Of a stretch of DNA of 14,635 nt, positions 1,920-14,635 are shown piece after piece. The position numbers and the translations under genes were made by a program. Each line of letters starts with the position of its first letter. The stretch's first letter is position 1. The notes beneath the pieces were generated by a model. It was not told the DNA's origin and searched no databases. It worked only from the letters and a program-made list of their open reading frames with translations. The stretch is from a virus (lineage: Duplodnaviria; Heunggongvirae; Uroviricota; Caudoviricetes). The DNA lies in IMG/VR virus record IMGVR_UViG_2693429762_000010, positions 1 to 14,635 of that record; one strand, 5' to 3'.

Positions 1920-2850
1920 TATGCAAGCCTCACAATATAGTTAAATGCGATGTTTTTGACGGTGTTTTCCGCGTTACCAGCAGCGTTAACGGTGATGGTG
2001 TGTCCATGTGAACCAATCGCAACGGAGTGCGTATGCGCACCAATACCTACAGTATGTGCATGTGCGCCAGAACTTGCTGCAGTACCAGACAGCGAGTGGG
2101 TATGAGCACCTGCTGACTGTGTCTGAATACGTTGATAATACGATCTACGGGAAGAAGTCCCCGGGCTTACTTGATACTGTGAATCCTGGACATAAGTGAA
2201 CCCACCGCCATCATAAAATGCTAACGCAGAACCGCCGCCTCCTGGCCAACGAATACCATTACCATGAGTATGATCACCGGCAGACCCCGTAGCAAGGTCA
2301 TAGGCTGCCTTTACCGACTTTGGCGTTGCCGCCAGCATTTCAGATGTGCTGTTGGTCGCGTTGCTAAGCTGAACTATCCCTTTCTGTGCTGTCGTTGCAT
2401 CCTGTGCGGTGTATTTCCCGTTAGCCAGCTCATACGCGGCCTTAACGGCTTTTGGCGTTGCCGCCAGTGACTCGGAAGTGCTGTTAGTCGCACTGCTGAG
2501 CTGAACTATCCCCTTTTTCGTCGTGCTCGCATCCTCAAGCGCCACGGCGGATGCAATATCCTCTGCCCGTTTTGCCGCTGTCTCAGCGCGCGTTGCCGCG
2601 GATTCCGCCGTACTTTTGCTCTGAGCTGCCGCCGTCGCACTGCCAGCTGCCTCTGTCGCCTTCGTGGATGCCGTCGTGGCGCTGCCCTTCGCTGCTGACG
2701 CCTGTCTGGTCGCCTCATCTTTTGAAGCAGACGCAGATGATGCCGATGACGCCGCCGAACTGGCGGACGATGCGGCAGCCGTTTTTGAGGATTCTGCGCT
2801 GGTTTCCGACGCTTTCGCGTTCGTCTCGGATGTCTTCGCTGCGGAATCCC
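1919..2850 (-). pseudogene. stf: side tail fibre (Stf) C-terminal remnant, 5' part deleted
   Basis: Frame ends ...[31 protein letters not shown] with the His-rich HTHS repeats and duplicated KGIVQLS(S/N)ATNSTSE motif of lambda Stf. Homology ([12 protein letters not shown]...) runs upstream in-frame to a stop at 2879-2881 with no credible start; the natural N-terminal ~2/3 is missing. Confidence 0.75.
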
Positions 2851-2859
2851 GCTGCTGCC

Positions 2860-2937
2860 TGTGGCGGTGTGAGCCGGATCATTACCGGCAAAAATATGTA
2901 CTTCCGCACGCTGTTCAGTGATGGTTTTCGTCACCAT
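2860..2937 (-). pseudogene. D: head decoration protein D N-terminal fragment (D'), fused out of frame to stf'
   Basis: ATG at 2935-2937 opens [26 protein letters not shown], matching the lambda gpD N-terminus (…GNSDPAHTAT…) from memory. Homology stops after ~26 codons and the stf frame takes over near 2850-2860. Confidence 0.5.
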
Positions 2938-2973
2938 ATTGTTAAAACCTCGTATTGATGTTCAGCACTGACT

Positions 2974-4425
2974 TCATGGCATGGCCATGAGCATTTTCAC
3001 GTCCGCATCACCGTCTTCTGACGCCTGTGACACGCCCCCCTGGACCGCAGCCGGTGAATGGTTCGCCATGAAATGTTCAAACAGGGCGGTTGTGGATGCA
3101 GAGACCGGTTCTGCCTTACCTGATCCCGCAGCCAGCACAGCCCGGGCGCTCTCCACGGTCATTCCCGGGCAGGCAGCCAGCTGTTCAGCCTGCGCCTCAG
3201 CCCCTTTTGCCTCATCCAGGGCCATGATCTGATCACGGAGTGATGGTCCGGCATTCGCCTGCGGTGAAGCAGCCAGGATCGGGCGGGCTTTTTCCACCGT
3301 CATCTCCGGCATCGCCGCCAGCGTTACTGCCAGTTGTTCACGACCGTTCGCTTCTTCACACGCCATAATGCGATCGGCTTCACTCTGCGCGGATGCCACC
3401 GGCTGCTGCGGTGCCGCCGCGGCCAGAATCGCCCGGGCCTGTTCAACGCTCATGCCCTGTTGCCCTGCCAGCATCGTGGCAAGCTGTTCACGTCCTTTCG
3501 CTTCCTGGCATGTCAGGATCCCCATCACTCGCTGGTTCTCCTGCACGGCGGCTTCCGTTGCAGTTAATTGCGGCATAGTGCCTCCTCTGACATTACTGTT
3601 CAGCGCCGTGGCCATCACACTGATGGCATCCGACGCATTGATTAATTCATCCGCCAGCCCGGCCTCAATGCCGGACTGACCTTCAAAAACGGCGGCCTCT
3701 GTTCCCGTGACCGCATCCACAGACAACCCGGTATACATCGCCACTTTTTCGGCAAACATCCGGTGCGCCGCATCAATCCGCTGCTGCATATCCTGGCGAA
3801 CCTCTGCCGGCAACGCTTCAAACTGATTGCCATCCACCTTGTGCGCCCCGGCATAAATCAGCGTGATATCCACACCGGCCTGCGCCAGATGACCGGCATA
3901 GCTGACATGGCTCATCATCACGCCAATGGAGCCGATACGGGATGTCTGGGTAACCAGCCGTCGGGAGCAGGCCGACGCCAGCAGCATGGCTGCAGAACAG
4001 GCCGTGTCATTGCACAGTGCCCAGACCGGCTTCTGCTGACGGAGGCGGTAAATCATGTCAGCGCAGTCAAACGCGCCGGCGGCCTGCCCGCCCGGACTGT
4101 CAATGTCCAGCAGTATGCCCCGCACCTGGCTATCTGCCATTGCCTGCTGAAGACAGGCGACAATGCCGTCATAGCCAGTCATTCCGGAAAATGGCCGCAT
4201 CCCCCCCAGCCGGTGCACCAGCGTGCCGCTCACCGGCAGTACCGCAATACCGTTCACCACCCGGTAAACACGGGCCGGTCGTTTACCTCCGGCCATGTAC
4301 TCGTCCGTTTCAGCCAGCATTCCGGGAGCATCAAGCTGTACCTGCTGTTGTGGTACCGAAAGACTTGCTGCCCCCATCTCGCGCCCGAGCGCGCAAAAGA
4401 AAACCCGCGCATAGCAGGGCCGCAT
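2974..4425 (-). CDS. C: lambda gpC-like head maturation protease/scaffold (S49 ClpP-like), natural N-terminus deleted
   Basis: YARVFFCAL…NGIAVLPVSGTL…GILLDIDSPGG…AFDCADMIYR…PVWALCNDTACSAAMLLASACSRRLVTQTSRIGSIGVMM aligns with remembered lambda gpC, with a repeated C-terminal EEA(K/N)GREQLA motif. Homology begins at YARVFF; the first in-frame ATG (4423-4425) lies in out-of-frame portal-derived sequence, so expression is doubtful. Confidence 0.7.
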   Translation of the reverse strand: MRPCYARVFFCALGREMGAASLSVPQQQVQLDAPGMLAETDEYMAGGKRPARVYRVVNGIAVLPVSGTLVHRLGGMRPFSGMTGYDGIVACLQQAMADSQVRGILLDIDSPGGQAAGAFDCADMIYRLRQQKPVWALCNDTACSAAMLLASACSRRLVTQTSRIGSIGVMMSHVSYAGHLAQAGVDITLIYAGAHKVDGNQFEALPAEVRQDMQQRIDAAHRMFAEKVAMYTGLSVDAVTGTEAAVFEGQSGIEAGLADELINASDAISVMATALNSNVRGGTMPQLTATEAAVQENQRVMGILTCQEAKGREQLATMLAGQQGMSVEQARAILAAAAPQQPVASAQSEADRIMACEEANGREQLAVTLAAMPEMTVEKARPILAASPQANAGPSLRDQIMALDEAKGAEAQAEQLAACPGMTVESARAVLAAGSGKAEPVSASTTALFEHFMANHSPAAVQGGVSQASEDGDADVKMLMAMP

Positions 4426-4552
4426 CGGCACTCTGCGCCGGTGGCAACCACTCCGCCATTTGCCCGCCAAATCCTGCGCCGCCCCCGTTGTAGCTGAGAC
4501 TCTCACGAAGCGGAACGCCGTTCACATCAATCAGGACAGGCGTTCGTTTCAT
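4406..4552 (-). pseudogene. B: portal protein B N-terminal fragment (B'), ~49 codons
   Basis: MKRTPVLIDVNGVPLRESLSYNGGGAGFGGQMAEWLPPAQSADAALL matches the lambda gpB N-terminus (…GGGSGFGGQLRSWNPPSESVDAALL…). Sequence then switches to gpC homology in another frame; start overlaps the W stop in the usual ATGA arrangement. Confidence 0.6.
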
Positions 4553-4755
4553 AACCTCACTCCCAGCGGACGACGGCGACGTCGGGTTGTCCCCAGTACC
4601 GACTCCGCATCATTGATCGCCCGGTTAAGCTCATCCAGAGAAGCCGCCGTATATTCAATTCTGCGACCATCTTTCTGGACAGACACCACCCGTTTACCGG
4701 TTAATAAATCAAGGCGCGCCTGACGCAGCGCCTGTAGTTCAGCGACTGTAACCAT
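4549..4755 (-). CDS. W: head-tail joining protein W
   Basis: 68-aa [42 protein letters not shown]… aligns along its length with lambda gpW (…[23 protein letters not shown]…). Confidence 0.85.
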   Translation of the reverse strand: MVTVAELQALRQARLDLLTGKRVVSVQKDGRRIEYTAASLDELNRAINDAESVLGTTRRRRRPLGVRL

Positions 4756-6379
4756 TCACTCCTCCGGACAGCTTCGCTGCCAGTTCTTTAAGGGTTGGCC
4801 GGGTCGTCTCTTCTTCCCGGGATTTTGCCAGTACAGCCAGATCAAGCTGCCAGCGTTGCACGGACACACGTAATGCCGCGTAGGCATACACCAGGCAGTC
4901 CAGCGCTTCGTTACGCCGCTTTTTGTTATCCCACAGCAGACGCATCTTTCCTTTTTCCCACTTCTCCACAAGCTCTTCCGCGACCAGTTGCTGCGCCTCT
5001 GTCTGCGAAAAAATCTCCGGATCATCAGGAAAACGGATGGCATACGACGTGGCTTCATCCGCAGACGTGGGATCGGCTTTCATACGGGCATAGAGAATTT
5101 CTTTTGCGGTGTCCGTCCCCACTTCACACAGATACACGCCCCGCTGATTGCGGGTTTTCGGCATGGTGATCACCGGCTTGCCATAGACAGATGCGCCTTT
5201 TACCGGCAGCACCCGGAAAACACCGTGTTTTTTTGACCTCTGATAGACAATTTCACCATCGATCCCCCCGGTGTCCCAGCAGACACGGGAAATGGTCATT
5301 TCGGTTCCGTCTGCATGGCAGTATTTTTTGTTGATCGCCGCATCCACACGTAACAGCGTCTCTTCCTCATCGGGACGGCCCATAATGATGATTTTATCCA
5401 CCAGAAAAGCTTCCTCTCCCGGTGCCCATCCCCAGACATACATCTCAAAACGGTTTCGCTGCGAGTCAATGCCCGCCGTCAGATAAACCACCCGGGCTGG
5501 CACCGCCGCCGTGTAATGCACGACCTTATCCATCAGTACCTGGTGATCGAGTTTTTCGCCCACGGCCTCTTCCCAGGTCTCGCCCAGCGTGGTGTTCACA
5601 AAGGTTTTCAGGCCGTTGGGATCTTTCAGTGCATCCAGCCAGTCATAGACTATCTGTACCCAGGTGGTGAACGGACTGTACGCCGTCCAGATATGGAACG
5701 TGATGGAGCGCGGCGGCGGAATTTCATTATCCGCGGCGCTGAAAAACGTCAGACCGTCACGGGTCCACATCCCCGTGTTTTCACAGATCCACCGCCCGTT
5801 GCTCTGGTCAAGCTCAGACTGATGGATCACGCAGCCATGATGTTCACAGAGGTAGAAAACGCTTTCGGGGCTGTCCTTCTCCCATTTAAGGCCAAAAGGC
5901 GTGGATTCATCGCCAAATTTCAGATACTGCTCCTCCCCACAGTGTGGGCAGGGCACATAAAAACGCATGAAATGCGCCGACTCGTTGGCCGCTTTTTCGA
6001 TCTGGCAGGTGCCTTTGATTTTAGGCGTCGAGCCGCGAATGGATTTGGGCCATACAGAGCCCTCAATACGTTTATCCCCAAGCAGGGTTGGCGAACCCTC
6101 TTTTTCGACATCCGGTTCGAACGAGGAAAGTTCGTCATAGCAGACCACGTCCACGGATTTTTCACGGTAGTTTTTAGCGGCAGCCCCGCCCAGGCACCAG
6201 AAGCCCACGCCCGATGAAAAACGTTTCAGCGTGAGGGTATTATCACGATGTTTACGCCCAAACCACGGTGCAAGATCGAGTAAAACCGGCACATCCCTGA
6301 TCGTGGGTTCCACATGAGATTTCATAAAATCTTCAGCAGCAGAACCCCTGACTCTGCCAGGCGGTGATGGTCCTGACAT
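4739..6379 (-). CDS. A: terminase large subunit gpA homolog lacking the N-terminal ~90 residues (Nu1'-'A deletion fusion; probably non-functional)
   Basis: [17 protein letters not shown]…[18 protein letters not shown]…[16 protein letters not shown]…[10 protein letters not shown]…[12 protein letters not shown] closely matches lambda gpA from about residue 95 onward. The N-terminal region, including the Walker A segment remembered near residue 80, is absent. In-frame ATGs at 6379 and 6325. Confidence 0.85.
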
Positions 6380-6422
6380 CAACGCCAAAAATATCGGCCA
6401 GTTTTTTCTTATTGACGTTCAT
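6333..6422 (-). pseudogene. nu1: terminase small subunit Nu1 remnant (first ~26 codons only)
   Basis: ATG at 6420-6422 opens [26 protein letters not shown] (lambda Nu1: MEVNKKQLADIFGASIRTIQNWQEQG…), then runs into a stop after 3 more codons where gpA-homologous sequence begins. Confidence 0.6.
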
Positions 6423-6559
6423 ACACTCCCCCGGGAACCAGAAAGGATCTGAAAATGGCGTTTTCTAACAAAAACAGCCTTTGTCAGATCCTTTTATATT
6501 TTTAAAATTCTATTGATAATCAATCAGTTAAAAAGAAGAAGAACGGATCTGATTTTTCC

Positions 6560-6620
6560 CTAAAAATTTTCATAAATAGCGAAAACCCGCGAGGTCGCCG
6601 CCCCGTAACCGGTCGGATCG
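6560..6620 (-). other. cos site (cosN cohesive-end sequence with flanking cosQ/cosB regions)
   Basis: Minus strand reads GGGGCGGCGACCTCGCGGGTTTTCGCTATTTATGAAAATTTT, matching the lambda left end. The 12-nt cohesive-end sequence GGGCGGCGACCT lies at 6592-6603, about 170 bp upstream of the Nu1' start. Confidence 0.8.
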
Positions 6621-6639
6621 CCGGAAAGGACCCACGAAA

Positions 6640-6654
6640 TGATAATGATTATCA
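6640..6654. promoter_or_regulatory. perfect 7-1-7 inverted repeat TGATAATgATTATCA (Fur-box-like)
   Basis: Matches the TGATAATnATTATCA half-site model of the Fur box; about 37 bp from cosN and 155 bp upstream of the RHH-like ORF. Could be a coincidental AT-rich palindrome. Confidence 0.3.
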
Positions 6655-6809
6655 TCTATATAAGGTTTATCACAACATGTGTGTACGCCATCAAACCACG
6701 AGAAATAATCAATTATGACGCAGGTATCGTATTAATTGATCTGCGTCAAATTAACGTAAAAGCAACTTCAGATAATACAAATCAGCAACACTGAATATGG
6801 GGAAACATT

Positions 6810-6995
6810 ATGTCATCAAAGAACAGAACCCGCAGAACAACAACCCGCAACATCCGATTTCCAAACCAGATGATTGAACAAATTAACATCGCTCTTGATC
6901 TGAAAGGTTCAGGAAACTTTTCAGCGTGGGTTATTGAAGCCTGCAGAAGAAGGCTGTCAACAGAGAGTTCGGGTATGAATTACATAATTAAGTAA
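6810..6995 (+). CDS. small predicted ribbon-helix-helix DNA-binding protein
   Basis: 61-aa ORF with GGGGAA upstream. Pattern RNIRFPNQMIEQINIALDLKGSGNFSAWVIEACRRRL fits the beta-strand/helix/turn/helix layout of Arc/MetJ/CopG proteins. Equivalent small ORF remembered at the lambda right end. Confidence 0.55.
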   Translation: MSSKNRTRRTTTRNIRFPNQMIEQINIALDLKGSGNFSAWVIEACRRRLSTESSGMNYIIK

Positions 6996-7127
6996 CATGG
7001 TGTTCACAGAACACGCAGTTACCGGACACATCAGTTTTCCATTCGCTCCCCGGCAGTACAGGCTTCCCCTCTGACGGGATAGCCTGAAAAAATAACACAG
7101 AAAATTATTTGTTATAATTAATATAAC

Positions 7128-7268
7128 TTACTCAAAAAAAAGCGACGAGAAAATCAGCATCAACGAACAATAAGCGCCAATACGTGATAACAAATGGCAG
7201 CCATATTTATCTGCAGTATAAGCAATGGACAGGATAACCACACCAGAAACCGTCAGCATAAAATCCAT
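7128..7268 (-). CDS. hypothetical small hydrophobic protein (46 aa)
   Basis: ORF below the track's size cut-off found by manual translation: MDFMLTVSGVVILSIAYTADKYGCHLLSRIGAYCSLMLIFSSLFFE, with GGGGAAG 6 nt upstream. One or two predicted TM segments. Could be chance. Confidence 0.3.
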   Translation of the reverse strand: MDFMLTVSGVVILSIAYTADKYGCHLLSRIGAYCSLMLIFSSLFFE

Positions 7269-7618
7269 TTGAACTTCCCCGGACAAAATCGACTCATCTA
7301 AAGATTTACAGCTCTTTTTATTATCAATATGTTAAAAGTAAAATAAACAGATGTTCAATAACACGAATACAAAAACGTGCTGAAATTCAATGAATCCATT
7401 TCTGTGTCATCAATTAATAGTGATAAACATCCGGCTTCTTCCACCATCGCACCGGACAGGCGACTATGAGGGGACAACGCCGCGCTCCGTTAACGCGGTA
7501 AACCCCGGTGTGTATCGTTTTTGATTATCCCCGCACACTCGCGCAGAGGAGTCTCCCTGTCGGGCTGCGGTCTCTGTTAATGAGGGAATACAGCGACGAT
7601 ACGGCGCATCAACAAAAC

Positions 7619-9559: not shown

Positions 9560-10366
9560 TTATATACGCCCTTTCAGATAAGTCATCCCCGGCTGCATCC
9601 AGTCAACAGGTGCTTTCTTAAAGGGCGTATTATCAAAATCACGCAGAAGAGCCTCCAGCACAACTGCATCATTGTCAGCACCACTGGCCATCATTTCAAT
9701 CTCAGCTGCTACCTGCAGATATCCCATGCAACGACCAATGCGCTTCATCAGCCCCTGCTTTTTATTGTTCTTCAGGTAATCAATGGCAAATTCAATGAGC
9801 GCCTCACTATGCTGGTGCGATGGCGGTGTTAATTTCCCATTTTCTGAGATGGTTATTTTCCCGCCATCTCCGTATACAACAAAGGATGGCCGGTTACACT
9901 CCCATTCCTGATCTTTATCAGGTGCAGACGCAATAAAATAACGTTTATTTCCTTCCTCTCCGGCACTTTTAACCGTAATGGAGTACTCAGACTGCAGACA
10001 AGACGCCTCTTTTTCTGACCGCAGTGTTGACGGCGGCATCTTCAGAGAACCAGTAATTCTTCCCGGTAGCTTTCCTTTGTAGGTTATCAACACATCCTGC
10101 GCCTCTAAAATTATGGGGCGCTTTTCCGGCAACGGTTCGTTCCCTTCACATAACCCGGCAGCAACATCCATGAAAAACTGCTTCGCCTGCTTTTTCGCCT
10201 CAGCTTCGTAAAACTCCAGCGTGGCACCTTCAGTACGGTCAAGACTAATCGCCACATTTGGCAACAACAGTGACGGATACCCACCAATTTCCAGTACCAC
10301 AGTAACAGTAATCTTATCCGGGTAATTATTTATCCCTTTAACAACCAGTTCGTATTTTTTCTTCAT
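9560..10366 (-). CDS. hypothetical protein (268 aa) inserted between holin and endolysin
   Basis: Long ORF starting 4 nt after the holin stop, with GGGGAGAG SD inside the holin 3' end (translational coupling). Soluble, Lys/Glu-rich, no TM segments, no Walker or other catalytic motif recognised. Confidence 0.7.
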   Translation of the reverse strand: MKKKYELVVKGINNYPDKITVTVVLEIGGYPSLLLPNVAISLDRTEGATLEFYEAEAKKQAKQFFMDVAAGLCEGNEPLPEKRPIILEAQDVLITYKGKLPGRITGSLKMPPSTLRSEKEASCLQSEYSITVKSAGEEGNKRYFIASAPDKDQEWECNRPSFVVYGDGGKITISENGKLTPPSHQHSEALIEFAIDYLKNNKKQGLMKRIGRCMGYLQVAAEIEMMASGADNDAVVLEALLRDFDNTPFKKAPVDWMQPGMTYLKGRI

Positions 10367-10735: not shown

Positions 10736-12589
10736 TTATGATGATGCTGGTGCATTTATCTCCAGCACCAGACTTTCTATCTCAACGCCATACGCTGCAT
10801 TTTTGGTAATATCCGTCAGCGTCAGCGCATTCAGCCCCAGTGTCAGACTGTCTTTTATGACCTGGAATGCCGGGCCAGCCACTCCATTCAGTTTCGGAGT
10901 AACCGTGGCACTGCCGGCGGTGAACACCAGCTCCAGCGTCTGCCAGTCGTTACTGTAATTCCCGAACTCGCCCAACTTTGTGTTTCCTGCTTTCCTGTGA
11001 TGCATCAGATTCAGTTTGCCGTCTGTGGTCTGGGTGAAGAACGACATCAGGAACGGGTTACCAGTCCCGGTCATCGCCACGACGTCAGGTAACGCTACAT
11101 CGGTATACAGATAAATTCCCAGACCGAACTGGTTGTTGGTCAGTGCGCCTGACAGTCGAAACTTACAGCTCAGTCTGCCACCCCGTGTCAGCAGGGAGAC
11201 TGCGTCATCCACCGGGCGCGTCAGGGACCAGGCTTTATTGCTCTGCTTGGCGATCTTAAATACACCACCCGACAACTGAATTCCGCCGTCCTTAATGGTC
11301 CAGCCCTGCGCAGCAGCCTCTCCGGCTGTCGGCAGCAGGGAGATTGTGCGAACGGACGTATCTGCAGACGGACCCGATGGCGTGTCGCCGCCGGGCGAGG
11401 GTTTGATTTCCGGTGCCTTACCACTGATGAAGGCTGAGGTGCGCCCGGCTACGTTCAGAATAGCAGTTGCCATACGATCGGGAATAATGCCACGACGCGC
11501 CCATGAGCTGAAATGCGTCGGGCGATTTGATGATACCCAGTTTTTGTTCGTTCGGGATGCCGAACCGTAATAACCAGACCCGGCAATATCAGGATCTTCT
11601 GACGGGTTGTTTGTCGGTGTATTAACTCCGCTACCATCGGTCATAAAGGGAACAAAATAAATCTGCTGGGATTCTTTACCTTTATATGCACCATATACCA
11701 CTTCATATTGCGTACCGTGTTCTTGTTTCCACGCGTATGTCGTGTCGCCACAAATCCAGGGGACTGATGCCGGACTTCCACCGTGACACTGCGCTGCCAG
11801 CCCGGCAAGGTCAGCACGGAACTGCTGTACCATTGCAAGAAATGCTGCTGGCTGCTGGGCGTAACTGGCATTCGTCATATCGAATTCCCCCTGCATCCAG
11901 CATATCGCCAGCAAAACGTTTTTCGGGTTTTTCTGCAATGCTGCCTTCGTGCGGAAAAGCAGATCCTGATATAACGGCTTACCCACTCCCCAGCGAGCCG
12001 AATCCTGACTGGCCCCCGTGGACTCGCTGAATGTCCCCTCCGTGCCCTGGGTGAATGCCGAACCACCACGACAGCATGGTACCAGCAGGATCCCCGCATT
12101 ATTAGGGATATACGGAAGCAGTTTTTTGGCAATATGTAAGCCCTGGCCGACACAGCCGTACTGCCCTTTGCTCAGGTCAGCCCGGGGATGGTTAATCGTA
12201 CTCATATCCTGAACATCATGCAGACAATGGTCAGCAGGAATGATGTCGTTAAATACGCATACTTCACCACCGGGAGTCACTGTGTTACGACGGGCCAGTT
12301 GCTTAATGCGCGGATGGGGCGCATCGTATGAATCCGGAAGCGGAAGCCCTTCACCGTAAGCCATGGCATTGGACTGCCCGGCCAGTACGATGACGTAGTA
12401 CCACTCCGGCTCAGTTGCACCACTGACGACCACATCACCTTCTGCTGCAATCGCCTGCATCAGGGTATAAGGGGTTATGGCCACCGGACTACCAAACGGC
12501 TGCCAGCCCTCTTTCAGTTTATGTGTCAGCTTTTCCGCAAGATCTGACGGCGACGCCGCCCTGACAACATCATAGTGTTTAAATGCCAT
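10736..12589 (-). CDS. nanS: prophage sialate O-acetylesterase NanS-p (DUF1737 N-terminal domain plus SGNH/SASA esterase)
   Basis: 617-622 aa. Starts [22 protein letters not shown]…; esterase block [13 protein letters not shown] (GQSN nucleophile motif). Matches remembered NanS-p proteins found between stx/tRNAs and the lysis genes in EHEC prophages. Start placed at the second ATG (GGAAAG SD); the first ATG at 12604 lacks an SD. Confidence 0.88.
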
Positions 12590-12849
12590 GGTTCTTTCCA
12601 CCATCTGAAAAATGATTCTTTAAAATACCTGACATGTAATACAGAAAAAACACAAAACCATACCTTAATTAAAAACCTCATCATCAAGCAGATATGCATG
12701 GATAAACTACAAGACGAGATATAAACCACCCTGCATTTAAATAAACAATAAACAACATCAGAAAAATAATTCTGCTCTATGGTTTACAATCAAAAATATC
12801 ATTTATACTTTTCAGAACATCACCAGCAAGGCATAAACAAGGAAACTAA

Positions 12850-13185
12850 ATGAAGTGGATTGTGATTGATACAGTTATCCAGCCATCATGCGGAATATCT
12901 TTTTCAGTCATATGGAGTAAAATAAAATTAATAATCTGGTATCAATCGGATGCTTTCTTACCTCCTGAAAGTATATTTACACTGACTCACACAGGCATCA
13001 TGCTCAATAACAAAGTGCTGCCTGTAACCATTTACAACGTAGTACCATTCAATAAAACATTCTGGAATTTAATCAAAAACAGCCAGGAATGCCCTACAAA
13101 TACAGATAACGTATTGAATGAATGCTTTAATAACCGTTGCACTCTGCAAATATGTCCTTATGGGCTAAAACAACAAAGTCCATAA
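12850..13185 (+). CDS. hypothetical protein (111 aa), AT-rich cargo gene
   Basis: Uninterrupted ORF in AT-rich DNA with strong SD AAGGAAA 7 nt upstream. Hydrophobic N-terminus and a C-terminal four-Cys cluster (C-x9-C-x4-C-x4-C). 6 of 13 Ile codons are ATA. No family recognised. Confidence 0.55.
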
Positions 13186-13220
13186 GGAGTTTACTCACAT
13201 CTGACAAAATCAATATAAAC

Positions 13221-13240
13221 AGCCCCTCCGGAGAGGGGCT
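13221..13240. terminator. perfect 8-bp GC-rich stem-loop (AGCCCCTC-CGGA-GAGGGGCT)
   Basis: 35 nt after the 111-aa ORF stop. A U-rich tract follows on the minus strand only (GTTTATATTGATTTTG), so it is more plausibly a minus-strand terminator or an RNA-stabilising hairpin. Confidence 0.3.
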
Positions 13241-13632
13241 GGAGAGTGGCGCTATGTGCCATTGCATGGTGCCGGGTGCCTCCCGGTGAATTCAGTACCA
13301 GCACCTGAATCCGCGATTATCCCATATACCTACTCGCTGATTGCCCCTCCGCACAGGGGGATTCACCATGCCAGTTTCTTTTAACAAACTCCCCGCAAAC
13401 CAGACAACAGTCAACCGCCTGAATTGTGAAGTATTTAAAAATTTCTCCCGCTAACTGATACCCGGCTAACAGTCTGGCGTTTTCTTTTTCAGCAACGGGA
13501 AAGCAGCAACCACCACACCCGCCACCAGCACACCGTCAGCCAGCACTGACATTATCCGGCTGCTGCAATGCCATTCACAAAAACAGTAAGCAATCACTTT
13601 TTACCGTAACCGGTGATAATCCAGATATGTAT

Positions 13633-13989
13633 CTACCCCAGATGAGTAATCCGAAGTTCATCCATACCACAGGTCCTGGCTATTCTGTTGTACTCCTGAA
13701 CAAGAGCAAATAATTCTGAATTAGCCACCATGAACTCATCGCAAACCCTCTGTATAGCATCACTATTCAGAATAATAACGTCTCTTCCCGAAAGACGATC
13801 AGGAGTACAGAACAAAACTGTCAAACGGCTGAAGGCCTTTGCTCGTTCTGCATTGACTATATCAATACGCTGCCTAAGGATGAAACACCCCGACGCCTCA
13901 TCAATATTCACTCTACCCACACCATATGAATGATAAATATTTAATGCTGAAAAAACCATTAGACCGTATAACAAACACTCAATCAACAC
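13633..13989 (-). CDS. hypothetical protein (118 aa), AT-rich cargo gene
   Basis: Stop-free 357-nt frame in AT-rich DNA. GTG start without a clear SD; alternative in-frame ATG at codon 11. Rich in AGA/AGG/ATA codons. No family recognised. Confidence 0.4.
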   Translation of the reverse strand: MLIECLLYGLMVFSALNIYHSYGVGRVNIDEASGCFILRQRIDIVNAERAKAFSRLTVLFCTPDRLSGRDVIILNSDAIQRVCDEFMVANSELFALVQEYNRIARTCGMDELRITHLG

Positions 13990-14096
13990 TTAACAGAACT
14001 TTTATTTTTGACAAACATATAATATTTTCAACAATATCCTGAGCCAGGTATATTTCAGTATAAGGCTCTGCCGAAAGGAATCTGGAAGAATGAATA

Positions 14097-14173
14097 TGGC
14101 GCGCTGTACTGGATTCGAACCAGTGACCGATTGCTTAGAAGGCAATTGCTCTGTCCGGCTGAGCTAACAACGC
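14097..14173 (-). tRNA. tRNA-Arg (anticodon UCU)
   Basis: Minus strand GCGTTGTTAGCTCAGCCGGACAGAGCAATTGCCTTCTAAGCAATCGGTCACTGGTTCGAATCCAGTACAGCGCGCCA: 7-bp acceptor stem, D-arm, anticodon loop CUUCUAA, T-loop GGTTCGAATCC, encoded CCA. Resembles argU-type and Stx-phage arg tRNAs. Confidence 0.9.
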
Positions 14174-14273
14174 TGAATACCGATAATGGACCGCCATCGG
14201 GGACCCGCCCCCGCACCAACAACCCTGTTATCGTGTCGTCTGCTCTTCCTGATAAGCTAATGGCGGTTTGTGA

Positions 14274-14349
14274 TGGTGGCCCTTGCTGGATTTGAACCAG
14301 CGACCTGGCGATTATGAGTCGCTCGCTCTCACCACTGAGCTAAAGGGCC
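14274..14349 (-). tRNA. tRNA-Ile2 (anticodon CAU, ileX/ileZ-like, reads AUA after lysidine modification)
   Basis: Minus strand GGCCCTTTAGCTCAGTGGTGAGAGCGAGCGACTCATAATCGCCAGGTCGCTGGTTCAAATCCAGCAAGGGCCACCA: full cloverleaf, anticodon CAU. Much closer to remembered E. coli ileX than to elongator tRNA-Met. Confidence 0.88.
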
Positions 14350-14398: not shown

Positions 14399-14635
14399 TC
14401 AAACGATTAAATCCTGAACTTCCCTGACTGTCTGCTCAAAACGTCCGGTCTCCAGTTCAACGCCAATCGCACGACGCCCGAGCGCCAGTGCAGCTTTTAC
14501 CGTTGAACCTGAGCCCATAAAAAAATCTGCAACCAGGTCATCATCTGCATAGTACGTCAGCGCCGGCCACTGGTTCAGGGCGTATGCGAACGCTTTCGCC
14601 AGTTCTGAGTGTCGCGACAGGGTTTTCATCTTTTC
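14399..14635 (-). CDS. DNA methyltransferase (N6-adenine/N4-cytosine, beta-class), C-terminal part; gene runs off the window end
   Basis: C-terminal 76+ aa with FxGxG SAM-binding motif (DFFMGSGST) placed near the C-terminus as in beta-class DNA MTases. Frame stays open to the window edge. Position upstream of the tRNAs matches remembered Stx-phage layout. Confidence 0.75.
   Translation of the reverse strand, partial: EKMKTLSRHSELAKAFAYALNQWPALTYYADDDLVADFFMGSGSTVKAALALGRRAIGVELETGRFEQTVREVQDLIV

Follow-up and report, generated by a model that had tools for sequence, protein, structure and literature searches.

iraL and a small-gene cassette at the stx position of a defective lambdoid prophage of Escherichia coli

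Layout of the interval from the phage tRNAs to nanS-p

The window, by which we mean the whole stretch of 14,635 nucleotides that was analyzed, contains an interval located between phage tRNA genes and nanS-p, the position at which 933W has stx2AB. Here a defective lambdoid E. coli prophage carries its accessory genes ("morons"), in the place of stx in Stx phages, and the cargo is mainly iraL. The finding is real but ordinary, and already known, since iraL was characterized in 2014 and roughly one E. coli genome in four carries it. The features of the interval and its flanks, in window coordinates, are as follows.

10736–12589, minus strand: nanS-p (DUF1737, SASA sialate O-acetylesterase and DUF6645), placed by domain matches and the RefSeq start
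12590–12849, unstranded: AT-rich (30% GC) intergenic part of the iraL module, holding promoter and 5'UTR
12783–12817, plus strand: iraL sigma-70 promoter (−35-like TTTACA at 12783–12788, −10 TATACT at 12804–12809, start at 12817)
12850–13185, plus strand: iraL, RssB anti-adaptor of 111 aa with an ATG start (NCBIfam, identity to CFT073, structure match)
13211–13400, minus strand: predicted STnc100-family sRNA gene (RF02076; cmscan 132.4 bits against a gathering threshold of 47, E=2.4e-30)
13466–13597, minus strand: 5'-truncated DUF3927/TciB remnant of 43 aa with a GTG start (Pfam PF13064)
13633–13911, minus strand: 92-aa gene of PHROG_2873, GTG start, predicted two-helix hairpin (PHROG match, homologues)
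13633–13989, minus strand: 118-aa ORF of the initial annotation, GTG start, over-extended
13912–14096, minus strand: AT-rich (31% GC) leader from tRNA-Arg to the 92-aa gene, holding 26 spurious N-terminal codons
14097–14173, minus strand: tRNA-Arg (UCU), homologue of 933W argO
14174–14273, minus strand: degenerate middle tRNA-Arg (argN) homologue, from alignment with CFT073 and 933W
14274–14349, minus strand: tRNA-Ile2 (CAU), identical to 933W ileZ and printed as Met by ARAGORN
14399–14543, minus strand: C-terminal fragment of an N6/N4 DNA methyltransferase gene, before the tRNAs (PF01555 profile positions 180–219 of 221)

Both ORFs described in the initial annotation, of 111 aa on the plus strand and 118 aa on the minus strand, exist at these positions, and its proposal of an stx-type locus was borne out: tRNA-Ile2, tRNA-Arg, nanS-p, holin and lysozyme could all be placed, and the succession of tRNAs, cargo, STnc100, nanS-p, S and R matches 933W, in which the late region is followed by tRNA ileZ-argN-argO, stx2AB, STnc100, AsxR on the opposite strand, nanS-p, S and R. 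The tRNA blocks of the two are 86% identical, and beyond the cargo the sequences match again in STnc100 and then from the nanS-p start codon (window 12590); unlike 933W, the window lacks stxA and stxB, and its spacer between STnc100 and nanS-p holds iraL rather than the anti-sRNA AsxR. The interval is horizontally assorted prophage cargo in a Q-tRNA-cargo-nanS-p-S-R region, as had been suggested, but the two ORFs are not divergent. They are convergent, lying tail to tail 450 nt apart with the STnc100 gene and the DUF3927 ORF between them, neither of which figured in the earlier two-gene description, and it is from nanS-p that iraL diverges.

The RefSeq start of nanS-p (MAFKHYDV) lies at 12589, compared to 12604 for the mechanical ORF, and 3' of the gene are a P21-type holin and then a lysozyme. 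In the argN homologue the acceptor, D and T arms align and the anticodon arm is replaced; neither ARAGORN nor Rfam called it. Homology of the methyltransferase fragment to intact prophages ends at approximately 14540–14543. The prophage is rearranged, with the methyltransferase gene truncated near 14543 and Q/pR' outside the window.

The absence of toxin genes was upheld. StxA2 and StxB2 gave a best tblastn E value of 0.4 and zero blastn matches at word size 7, and the only StxB2 match touching the interval (16 residues, E=2.3, 12556–12603), which overlaps its first base, is at chance level, ruling out stx remnants as the contents of the slot. PADLOC returned no match for any of the three interval proteins, and a role in anti-phage defence was dropped. 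Base composition agreed in part with the AT-rich island proposed earlier: GC content is 30% in 12590–12849, 35% in iraL and 31% in 13912–14096, compared to 55% in STnc100, 52% in the DUF3927 ORF and 44% in the 92-aa gene, so that AT-richness is confined to the iraL module and the 185-bp leader. In E. coli O104:H4 the 1.5-kb interval is matched exactly, at 100% identity over its whole length, and it is found in this form in many other sequenced strains, while at least 80% of it was found in 863 of 5426 complete genomes.

The iraL module

The 111-aa protein is identical to the IraL of CFT073 at 111 of 111 residues by direct comparison, and a single RefSeq accession covers the proteins of CFT073 (C_RS06710) and O104:H4 under the label IraM-family anti-adapter. 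The initial annotation, which described an uncharacterized gene here, is therefore superseded. Residues 1–110 match NCBIfam NF007393 (IraM subfamily), scoring 162 bits where the cut-off is 121 (E=4.7e-48), and identity to K-12 IraM is 62%, in line with the published IraL-IraM value of 58.9% (PMC4045071). The gene is present in 1446 of 5426 complete E. coli genomes, and the copies compared differ by four synonymous and no non-synonymous variants.

Structural comparison gave a consistent picture. The sequence matched the IraM structure PDB 8TWD (E=9e-32), and the AF2 model superposed on 8TWD_A as the top Foldseek match (TM 0.90, rmsd 1.2 Å), followed by the PmrD entries 4HN7, 2JSO and 2RQX; the PmrD-like anti-parallel beta-barrel core comprises residues 1–79, with pLDDT values of about 76–91. 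Taking the RssB-contact residues of IraM (clusters I–III) from PMC10844676, we found that 10 of 13 are identical in IraL (I4, I6, C14, F18, W22, K26, W30, I42, I61 and Y62) and that the other three are conservatively changed (T13S, H63N and I64V). IraL thus resembles K-12 IraM (YcgW, solved with RssB in 8TWD) in its NF007393 membership, its fold, its four-Cys tail and most of its RssB contacts. The genomic context of K-12 iraM is different, adjoining prophage e14, and IraM is under PhoP control. The preprint on the IraM structure links IraM to Mg2+ starvation. The conditions under which the two anti-adaptors act are not the same, IraL acting in log phase from a sigma-70 promoter (PMC4045071). 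[quoted passage not shown] From the identity of the two proteins we infer that the IraL of the window would likewise bind RssB and stabilize RpoS.

The upstream region, 12590–12849, differs from CFT073 by a handful of mismatches, three of them within the last ~70 nt that include the promoter and 5'UTR, and it has no counterpart in 933W. The 5'RACE sequence reported for CFT073, ACATCACCAGCAAGGCATAAACAAGGAAACCA (PMC4045071), maps to window 12817–12848 with one mismatch, placing the transcription start at 12817, and the upstream 100 nt are at least 96% identical between the two genomes. The −35 and −10 hexamers were assigned by reading the sequence and are separated by a 15-nt spacer; a consensus promoter scan missed this promoter. 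The 5'UTR is 33 nt long and contains the strong Shine-Dalgarno (SD) sequence that had been noted previously, AAGGAA at 12839–12844, 5–6 nt ahead of the ATG. Divergent promoters had been predicted in this AT-rich region. The promoter of iraL is supported by the start mapped in CFT073, whereas the consensus scan found no minus-strand site in 12590–12849, and a promoter toward nanS-p was dropped.

The closest known counterpart is the iraL locus of CFT073, which was named the "potB genomic island" by Hryckowian et al. (2014, mBio, PMC4045071) and which by the CFT073 annotation is a lambdoid prophage. In addition to the identical protein, the promoter, start and 5'UTR are alike except for the three mismatches, the neighbors are the same (tRNA-Ile/Arg, a 43-aa DUF3927 ORF, the STnc100 region, a nanS-p/DUF1737 gene and holin), and the DNA is 97% identical over 14388–12370. 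The two loci differ in that CFT073 has nanS-p cut to a DUF1737 fragment, three intact tRNAs and an IS200 between Q and the tRNAs, while the window has a full-length nanS-p, a degenerate middle tRNA and a truncated methyltransferase gene before the tRNAs.

The C-terminal cysteine cluster described in the initial annotation is present, and its four residues, C81, C92, C97 and C102 (with ICPYG), are invariant across the IraM/IraL family. The tail (residues 80–111) is modeled with a pLDDT of less than 50, which speaks neither for nor against metal binding, and an ordered knuckle gains no backing from the model. The CX10CX4CX4C-PYG tail is missing from the IraM crystal structure, and we found no discussion of these cysteines in the IraM literature searched.

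The STnc100 gene and the tRNA-side cassette

The match to the STnc100/PasD prophage sRNAs (RF02076; bioRxiv 10.64898/2026.05.13.724894) spans the full covariance model (positions 1–206) and lies well above the gathering threshold. It occupies the site typical of these sRNAs, after the stx slot and a short way upstream of the gene for the sialate esterase. It scores below the 933W copy (132 versus 207–208 bits), which lies 75 nt 3' of stxB2 (see also PMC12370729), and it is parted from nanS-p by the inserted iraL module. The terminator hairpin CAGCCCCTCTCCGGAGGGGCTG at 13220–13241 runs into a U-rich tail. Taken by itself, the MFE z-score is only −1.5. Together, the covariance model and terminator identify this as a predicted sRNA gene. 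STnc100 was detected by RT-PCR in outer membrane vesicles of STEC (PMC12370729).

On the tRNA side of STnc100, the 43-aa ORF matches PF13064 at profile positions 7–53 of 53 (E=1.3e-26, 92.7 bits against a cut-off of 25) and also belongs to the TciB-like PHROG_1470. Compared to full-length TciB it keeps the second TM helix, and the first is replaced by 11 unrelated residues (MIAYCFCEWHC); DNA homology to the tciB of JLK-2012 begins only at window 13565, inside the gene. The tciA-tciB cassette of JLK-2012 and of prophages L016 and L017 occupies the same slot, from the tRNAs or methyltransferase gene to STnc100/nanS-p or holin, and the 3' two-thirds of tciB and the STnc100 region of JLK-2012 are 93% identical to the window. 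Unlike those cassettes, the window has no tciA beside its tciB, which lacks the first TM helix, and a full-length two-helix TciB translationally coupled to a TerB-like tciA upstream was not found here. The initial annotation had considered whether its two ORFs might be decayed fragments of known genes. Such a fragment is present in the interval in the DUF3927 ORF, a decayed tciB, but the 118-aa ORF has intact 92-aa homologues.

The 118-aa ORF itself is over-extended. Every relative starts at the 92-aa core, and in the diverged allele the first 26 codons fall in a different frame. The last ~75 nt of the leader are conserved in that allele. A signal or TM segment at the hydrophobic N-terminus was rejected, as the extension in L011 stops in another frame and distant relatives all begin at the core. 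No alignment was obtained with TciA, and a diverged TciA was likewise discarded. The PHROG_2873 profile matches the whole 92-aa protein (E=2.5e-58), and homologues occur at 54–64% identity and, with the same start and end, down to 22–41%. Against a 62%-identical allele the 92 codons contain no indels or stops and give a dN/dS of 0.27, with 42 differences at third positions and 24 and 21 at first and second positions, while the two shifted frames give a dN/dS of ~1 and 4–11 stops. Three alleles have the GTG start and the leader in conserved form, that of L016 with a GGAG SD, and the AF2 model is a helical hairpin (pLDDT 85). The frame was intact in each of eight near-identical copies, of which seven carry variants and one is identical. 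However, the recent variants number six non-synonymous and two synonymous, not far from the 3.4:1 site ratio expected under neutrality, and three of them fall at the family-invariant residues E5, L30 and C57; the SD is also weaker here (GTGGGT, compared to AGGAGT in L016).

The gene is carried by ~1,270 complete E. coli genomes; this allele accounts for 1186 of them and an AraC-linked allele for 80. For the 1186 genomes, the 40 records listed had no PGAP/RefSeq call, and RefSeq annotation of the PHROG_2873 gene was missing from every E. coli record inspected for either allele, indicating an annotation gap over a small conserved family. An exhaustive HMM search for PHROG_2873 gave 20 representatives among 1.84 billion, and a scan of species-representative genomes with a narrower alignment found only E. 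coli. An AraC-type (HTH_18) regulator is located directly upstream in L007–L012, L016 and L017: L011 has the pair, and L016 and L017 have a full cassette of AraC-like gene, 92-aa gene, TerB-like gene, DUF3927 and holin. Regulator and 92-aa gene co-diverge (64% and 62–64% identity, respectively). Because megablast found the AraC-linked allele only in 80 mostly non-O157 genomes, the STEC strain 2012C-4502 among the carriers of the pair, we name this neighbor only "AraC-type", rather than PsrA, PsrB or PatE. In the window the regulator is absent and tRNA-Arg lies upstream instead.

Two cargo slots and the alternative readings

We consider it very probable that the interval consists of two independently assorting cargo slots split by STnc100, one with iraL (slot B) and one with a reduced cassette (slot A). 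Slot B would comprise 12590–13210, from STnc100 to the nanS-p start codon, with iraL under its own sigma-70 promoter. Because of that promoter, and because it is transcribed against the late operon, iraL could be expressed from a repressed prophage. As in the CFT073 work, and here by identity, IraL would then bind RssB at its N-terminal receiver domain, and in this complex the adaptor RssB would no longer deliver RpoS to ClpXP, so that RpoS would be raised in logarithmic growth. Slot A (13401–14096, tRNA-Arg to STnc100) would be the true positional equivalent of stx2AB, with a cassette on the late-operon strand made up of the intact 92-aa gene and the 3' part of tciB. It is most likely a decaying remnant, because the AraC-type regulator and the TerB-like tciA of fuller cassettes are absent, a reading for which only eight variant codons could be drawn upon. 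Two phages each share one slot with the window: mEp460_ev081 has slot A in common with it, but not iraL, and vB_EcoS-640R1 has iraL in common, but not slot A.

The alternatives concern mainly the nature of the 118-aa ORF and its 92-aa core. The original reading of two uncharacterized morons with divergent promoters in the AT-rich intergenic region is correct that both ORFs exist and that they lie in prophage cargo at the stx position, and at E≤0.1 Pfam gives neither ORF a match apart from a chance-level RHIM. It is already refuted for the 111-aa ORF, which is the characterized IraL (PMC4045071), and the convergent arrangement, with an sRNA gene and another ORF in the 450 nt between, together with an AT-rich region that lies between iraL and nanS-p and has promoter support for iraL only, makes it extremely improbable as a whole. 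That the 118-aa ORF is no gene at all, but a chance open frame in an AT-rich spacer and for that reason blank in RefSeq, would accord with the missing PGAP calls, the GTG start and weak SD, and the 26-codon extension that is not conserved in frame. This too is very unlikely, given that the core has a PHROG family, homologues with shared ends at 22–41% identity, a third-position bias, and purifying selection in its own frame that disappears in the shifted ones.

A more substantial alternative is that the 92-aa gene is a working moron encoding a small coiled-coil protein, expressed from the late strand or from a promoter within the conserved 75-nt leader. The gene may still function, because its frame is intact in all eight near-identical copies and its dN/dS is 0.27 over 92 codons free of indels and stops, and the conserved start and leader, the co-divergence with the AraC-like neighbor and the confident model point the same way. 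It could act on AraC-type regulators encoded by prophages elsewhere in the genome, as their partner or modulator, or it could bind DNA in the manner of GapR. The latter role is suggested by profile matches to GapR/UPF0335 in the PDB at E=0.04–0.2, which are weak and, since they come from several constructs of one protein, not independent, and by an hhalign probability of 47% over 47 columns, for which the C-terminal part of the GapR query was approximate. Foldseek against the PDB and viral models returned only generic helical hairpins (E>0.4), with no GapR among them, and a Pfam scan of nine PHROG_2873 members gave only scattered chance matches and no DUF2312. Set against a working gene are also the missing AraC-type and TciA neighbors, the weakened SD, the near-neutral variants at family-invariant residues and the lack of a PGAP call in the records inspected, and we regard it as somewhat unlikely compared to a remnant undergoing decay. 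More speculative, and in our view improbable, are two bolder conjectures that are independent of each other: that the 92-aa gene is a functional late-region gene whose product works with AraC-type regulators of the Psr/PatE kind, and that the cysteine tail of IraL/IraM is a metal or redox switch on anti-adaptor activity. On the first of these, the 92-aa protein could possibly serve as a co-factor or anti-activator, or bind DNA as a small coiled coil, with the orphan copy acting in trans, and if AraC-type regulators of acid resistance and virulence do need such a partner, this would have a bearing on regulation in EHEC.

The identification of iraL matters little in itself, as the gene is a published RpoS-stabilizing anti-adaptor and the interval is common in sequenced strains. 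What the two-slot explanation would add is a clearer map of the cargo site in the stx region, with STnc100 as the division between the slots. On this map the slot on the nanS-p side would be the one for elements that are expressed in the lysogen from the opposite strand, with AsxR as the example in 933W and iraL as the example here.

Position and composition of the interval

The initial annotation had placed AT-rich cargo with two unknown genes and no toxin genes at 12605–14096, where Stx phages carry stx. The position was right, but the interpretation is outdated: the interval is already known, since its centrepiece, iraL, has been published and the arrangement is common. Points of remaining interest are the function of the 92-aa gene of family PHROG_2873 and how it is linked to AraC-type regulators of prophages, the four-cysteine tail shared by IraL and IraM, and the targets of the small RNA STnc100. 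Two of the features below, STnc100 and a DUF3927 ORF, were absent from the initial list. The phage late genes occupy the minus strand, and the order follows their direction.

Features in and around the interval
14399–14543, minus: methyltransferase gene fragment
14274–14349, minus: tRNA-Ile2 (CAU)
14174–14273, minus: degenerate tRNA-Arg
14097–14173, minus: tRNA-Arg (UCU)
14096–12605: interval under study
13912–14096: leader, 31% GC
13633–13911, minus: 92-aa gene, 44% GC
13466–13597, minus: DUF3927/TciB ORF, 43 aa, 52% GC
13211–13400, minus: STnc100 sRNA, 55% GC (Rfam full-length match, 132 bits, gathering threshold 47)
12850–13185, plus: iraL, 35% GC
12590–12849: intergenic, 30% GC
12589/12604–10736, minus: nanS-p
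After nanS-p in the late-gene direction, minus: P21-type holin, then a DUF1327 ORF, then lysozyme

Comparison with phage 933W bore out the assignment to the stx locus. The order there is Q, pR', ileZ-argN-argO, stx2A, stx2B, a 486-nt spacer, the SASA esterase gene (nanS-p), S and R, and the window aligned to it in only three pieces: the tRNA block (86%), 170 nt immediately past stxB2, and nanS-p from the initiation codon onwards. Searches of the interval with StxA2 and StxB2 (tblastn and sensitive blastn) returned nothing beyond a StxB2 match at chance level, 16 residues long (E=2.3), which overlaps the first base of the interval; this upholds the absence of toxin genes. Both proposed ORFs, of 111 and 118 aa, are present; they are convergent rather than divergent, and the divergent pair consists of the 111-aa ORF and nanS-p. 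The foreign composition held in part, as GC content is 39.7% in the interval compared to 49.9% in the window, but low GC is confined to two patches. The middle phage tRNA-Arg (argN of 933W; 14174–14273, minus) was not called by ARAGORN or Rfam; alignment covers the acceptor, D and T arms, with a longer unrelated stretch in place of the anticodon arm. The two-tRNA arrangement with a gap of about 100 nt also occurs in other E. coli prophages.

The anti-adapter gene iraL

The 111-aa ORF, described as unknown, is identified by its sequence as IraL, since direct comparison gave 111/111 identity to the protein characterised in uropathogenic E. coli CFT073, with which it shares RefSeq protein WP_000871291.1. 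Matching genomes annotate it as 'anti-adapter protein IraM'; it scored 162 bits against the curated NCBIfam IraM model (cut-off 121) and is 62% identical to K-12 IraM. The study that characterised this paralogue in CFT073 gave its identity to IraM as 58.9% and sited it in a 'potB island' (PMC4045071). By annotation that locus is a lambdoid prophage adjoining potC, where one flank of iraL consists of tRNA-Ile/Arg/Arg and a DUF3927 ORF, and the other of a DUF1737 fragment and a holin gene. The published iraL 5'RACE sequence (PMC4045071) maps to 12817–12848 with one mismatch, giving a 33-nt 5'UTR that exactly matches the '+33' of the complementation construct in that study, and upstream of it only a few positions distinguish the window from CFT073. 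The IraL mechanism described in that study may be carried over to the window copy by protein identity. In the AF2 model, a confidently predicted core (residues 1–79) superposes on IraM of the IraM-RssB crystal structure 8TWD (TM 0.90, rmsd 1.2 Å), and next on PmrD; 10 of the 13 IraM residues given as RssB contacts are identical in IraL.

Of 5426 complete E. coli genomes, 1446 carry iraL together with its promoter, and so do four vB_EcoS-type E. coli phages with sequence records; all four variant codons among the copies compared were synonymous. By megablast, the complete 1492-nt interval occurs at 100% identity in many complete genomes, including O104:H4 outbreak strains, and 863/5426 genomes match it over 80% or more of its length.

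The four-cysteine C-terminal cluster was correctly recognised: C81, C92, C97 and C102, along with an ICPYG motif, are invariant across the IraL/IraM family at identities as low as 54%. The tail (residues 81–105; window 13090–13160) is disordered in the IraL AF2 model too; the IraM-RssB crystal construct lacked it, and its authors call it less conserved and flexible (PMC10844676). We found no discussion of these cysteines in the IraM papers searched. Could the tail have a role in metal or redox sensing?

The 92-aa gene

The second proposed ORF exists, but the real gene is its 92-aa core (13633–13911). In a second allele (approximately 57% identity over the long form, 62% over the core), the stretch corresponding to the first 26 codons lies in another frame that runs into a stop, and the gene starts at a GTG aligned with V27 of the ORF in the window. 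That GTG recurs, with GGAG ahead of it, in a third allele (64% identical), and distant relatives (22–41% identical) start there too; together these starts set the length of the gene at 92 aa. A large protein database contains the second allele and many near-identical calls with varying start positions, and the segment is present in 1186/5426 E. coli genomes.

Comparison with the 62% allele shows a real coding family: there are zero indels, differences at codon positions 1/2/3 number 24/21/42, and dN/dS is 0.27, compared to approximately 1, with stops, in shifted frames. Despite this ratio, no annotated feature lay under the gene among the matches listed (40 RefSeq records, of 1186 genomes); PGAP likewise skips the AraC-linked allele (also at 4784–5062 of comparison locus L011) among its listed matches (40 records, of 80 genomes). 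The protein matches PHROG_2873 (E=2.5e-58), a very small family with 20 representatives in 1.84 billion; in a scan of species representatives, E. coli alone yielded close relatives. The AF2 prediction is a two-helix hairpin (pLDDT 85), for which fold searches returned only generic hairpins; resemblance to GapR/UPF0335 was sub-threshold (E=0.04, hhalign 47%), and a Pfam match was absent.

In other prophages the gene occupies the same slot of the late region and lies directly 3' of the gene for a 241-aa regulator of the AraC type, the fullest cassette being methyltransferase, AraC-type regulator, 92-aa gene, TerB-like, DUF3927 and holin; regulator (64%) and 92-aa gene (62–64%) have diverged alike. 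The window allele lacks its AraC-type and TerB-like partners and has a weaker SD. Among eight near-identical copies (seven variant, one identical) there were six non-synonymous and two synonymous variant codons, some at family-invariant positions, which is what neutral drift would give, although numbers are small and the frame is intact in every copy.

STnc100, two cargo slots and the state of the prophage

STnc100 ends in the window with a GC-rich hairpin and a U-rich tail. In 933W it scored 208 bits and lies 75 nt past stxB2, as published for stx2 (PMC12370729), with the anti-sRNA AsxR next, on the opposite strand, and nanS-p beyond it; published work relates STnc100 to PasD sRNAs adjoining the esterase gene (bioRxiv 10.64898/2026.05.13.724894). 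A partial 'hypothetical protein' pseudogene annotated antisense to it in RefSeq for related genomes (13256–13381, plus) is probably an annotation artefact. The 43-aa DUF3927 ORF, notwithstanding its PGAP annotation, is a 5'-truncated remnant, because 11 unrelated residues replace the first of the two hydrophobic helices of full-length TciB proteins, the TerB-like tciA that normally overlaps it upstream is missing, and DNA homology to phage JLK-2012 begins inside tciB.

STnc100 splits the region into slot A (tRNA-Arg to STnc100) and slot B (STnc100 to the nanS-p start codon).

Contents of the two slots
933W: A, stx2AB; B, AsxR (opposite strand)
JLK-2012: A, tciA-tciB; B, about 170 nt with only a 38-aa hypothetical ORF
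Loci L011 and L016, with other alleles of the 92-aa gene: A, AraC-type regulator and 92-aa gene, with or without tciAB; B, no entry
mEp460 and some E. coli: A, as window; B, TolA-like gene
Window: A, 92-aa gene and tciB remnant; B, iraL (opposite strand)

The slots assort independently: phage mEp460_ev081 shares slot A with the window at 98.7% identity and lacks iraL, and phage vB_EcoS-640R1 shares iraL at 96.7% with a different slot A. Because AsxR in 933W (L013 4485–4537, minus), opposite the late operon, has the same place and orientation as iraL in the window (12590–13210), the STnc100–nanS-p spacer may, by analogy, be a preferred site for lysogen-expressed cargo.

The prophage is defective. 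Approximately 1.5 kb containing most of the portal gene is deleted (2845–6388 region; junction near 4413–4420), leaving a portal-start/S49-protease fusion ORF followed directly by tail-fibre genes; the large terminase gene has lost its 5' end (roughly the first 100 codons) and the small terminase gene is missing. The methyltransferase gene is cut at ~14543, and its last ~45 codons are fused in frame (14399–14635, minus) to a piece similar to the central part of an IS66-family transposase (positions 222–250 of Pfam DDE_Tnp_IS66); homology with all complete E. coli genomes ends at 14540–14543. Because of these rearrangements, late transcripts starting at pR' may now stop short of the interval, which would favour genes with their own promoter, such as iraL, over slot A.

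Elsewhere, the stretch that separates the truncated terminase gene from the lysis region (6389–7500) is AT-rich (36–41% GC), with no ORF longer than 61 aa and only patchy similarity to the O104:H4 prophage. An Rfam IS009 RNA match (1378–1576, minus; 224 bits, gathering threshold 117) lies inside a tail-fibre assembly gene (1335–1919). Between holin and lysozyme, a 268-aa ORF (9560–10366, minus) has a DUF1327/YdfR domain in its first 100 residues only, with an extension of ~170 residues beyond, and its O104:H4 counterpart is annotated as a truncated YdfR pseudogene.
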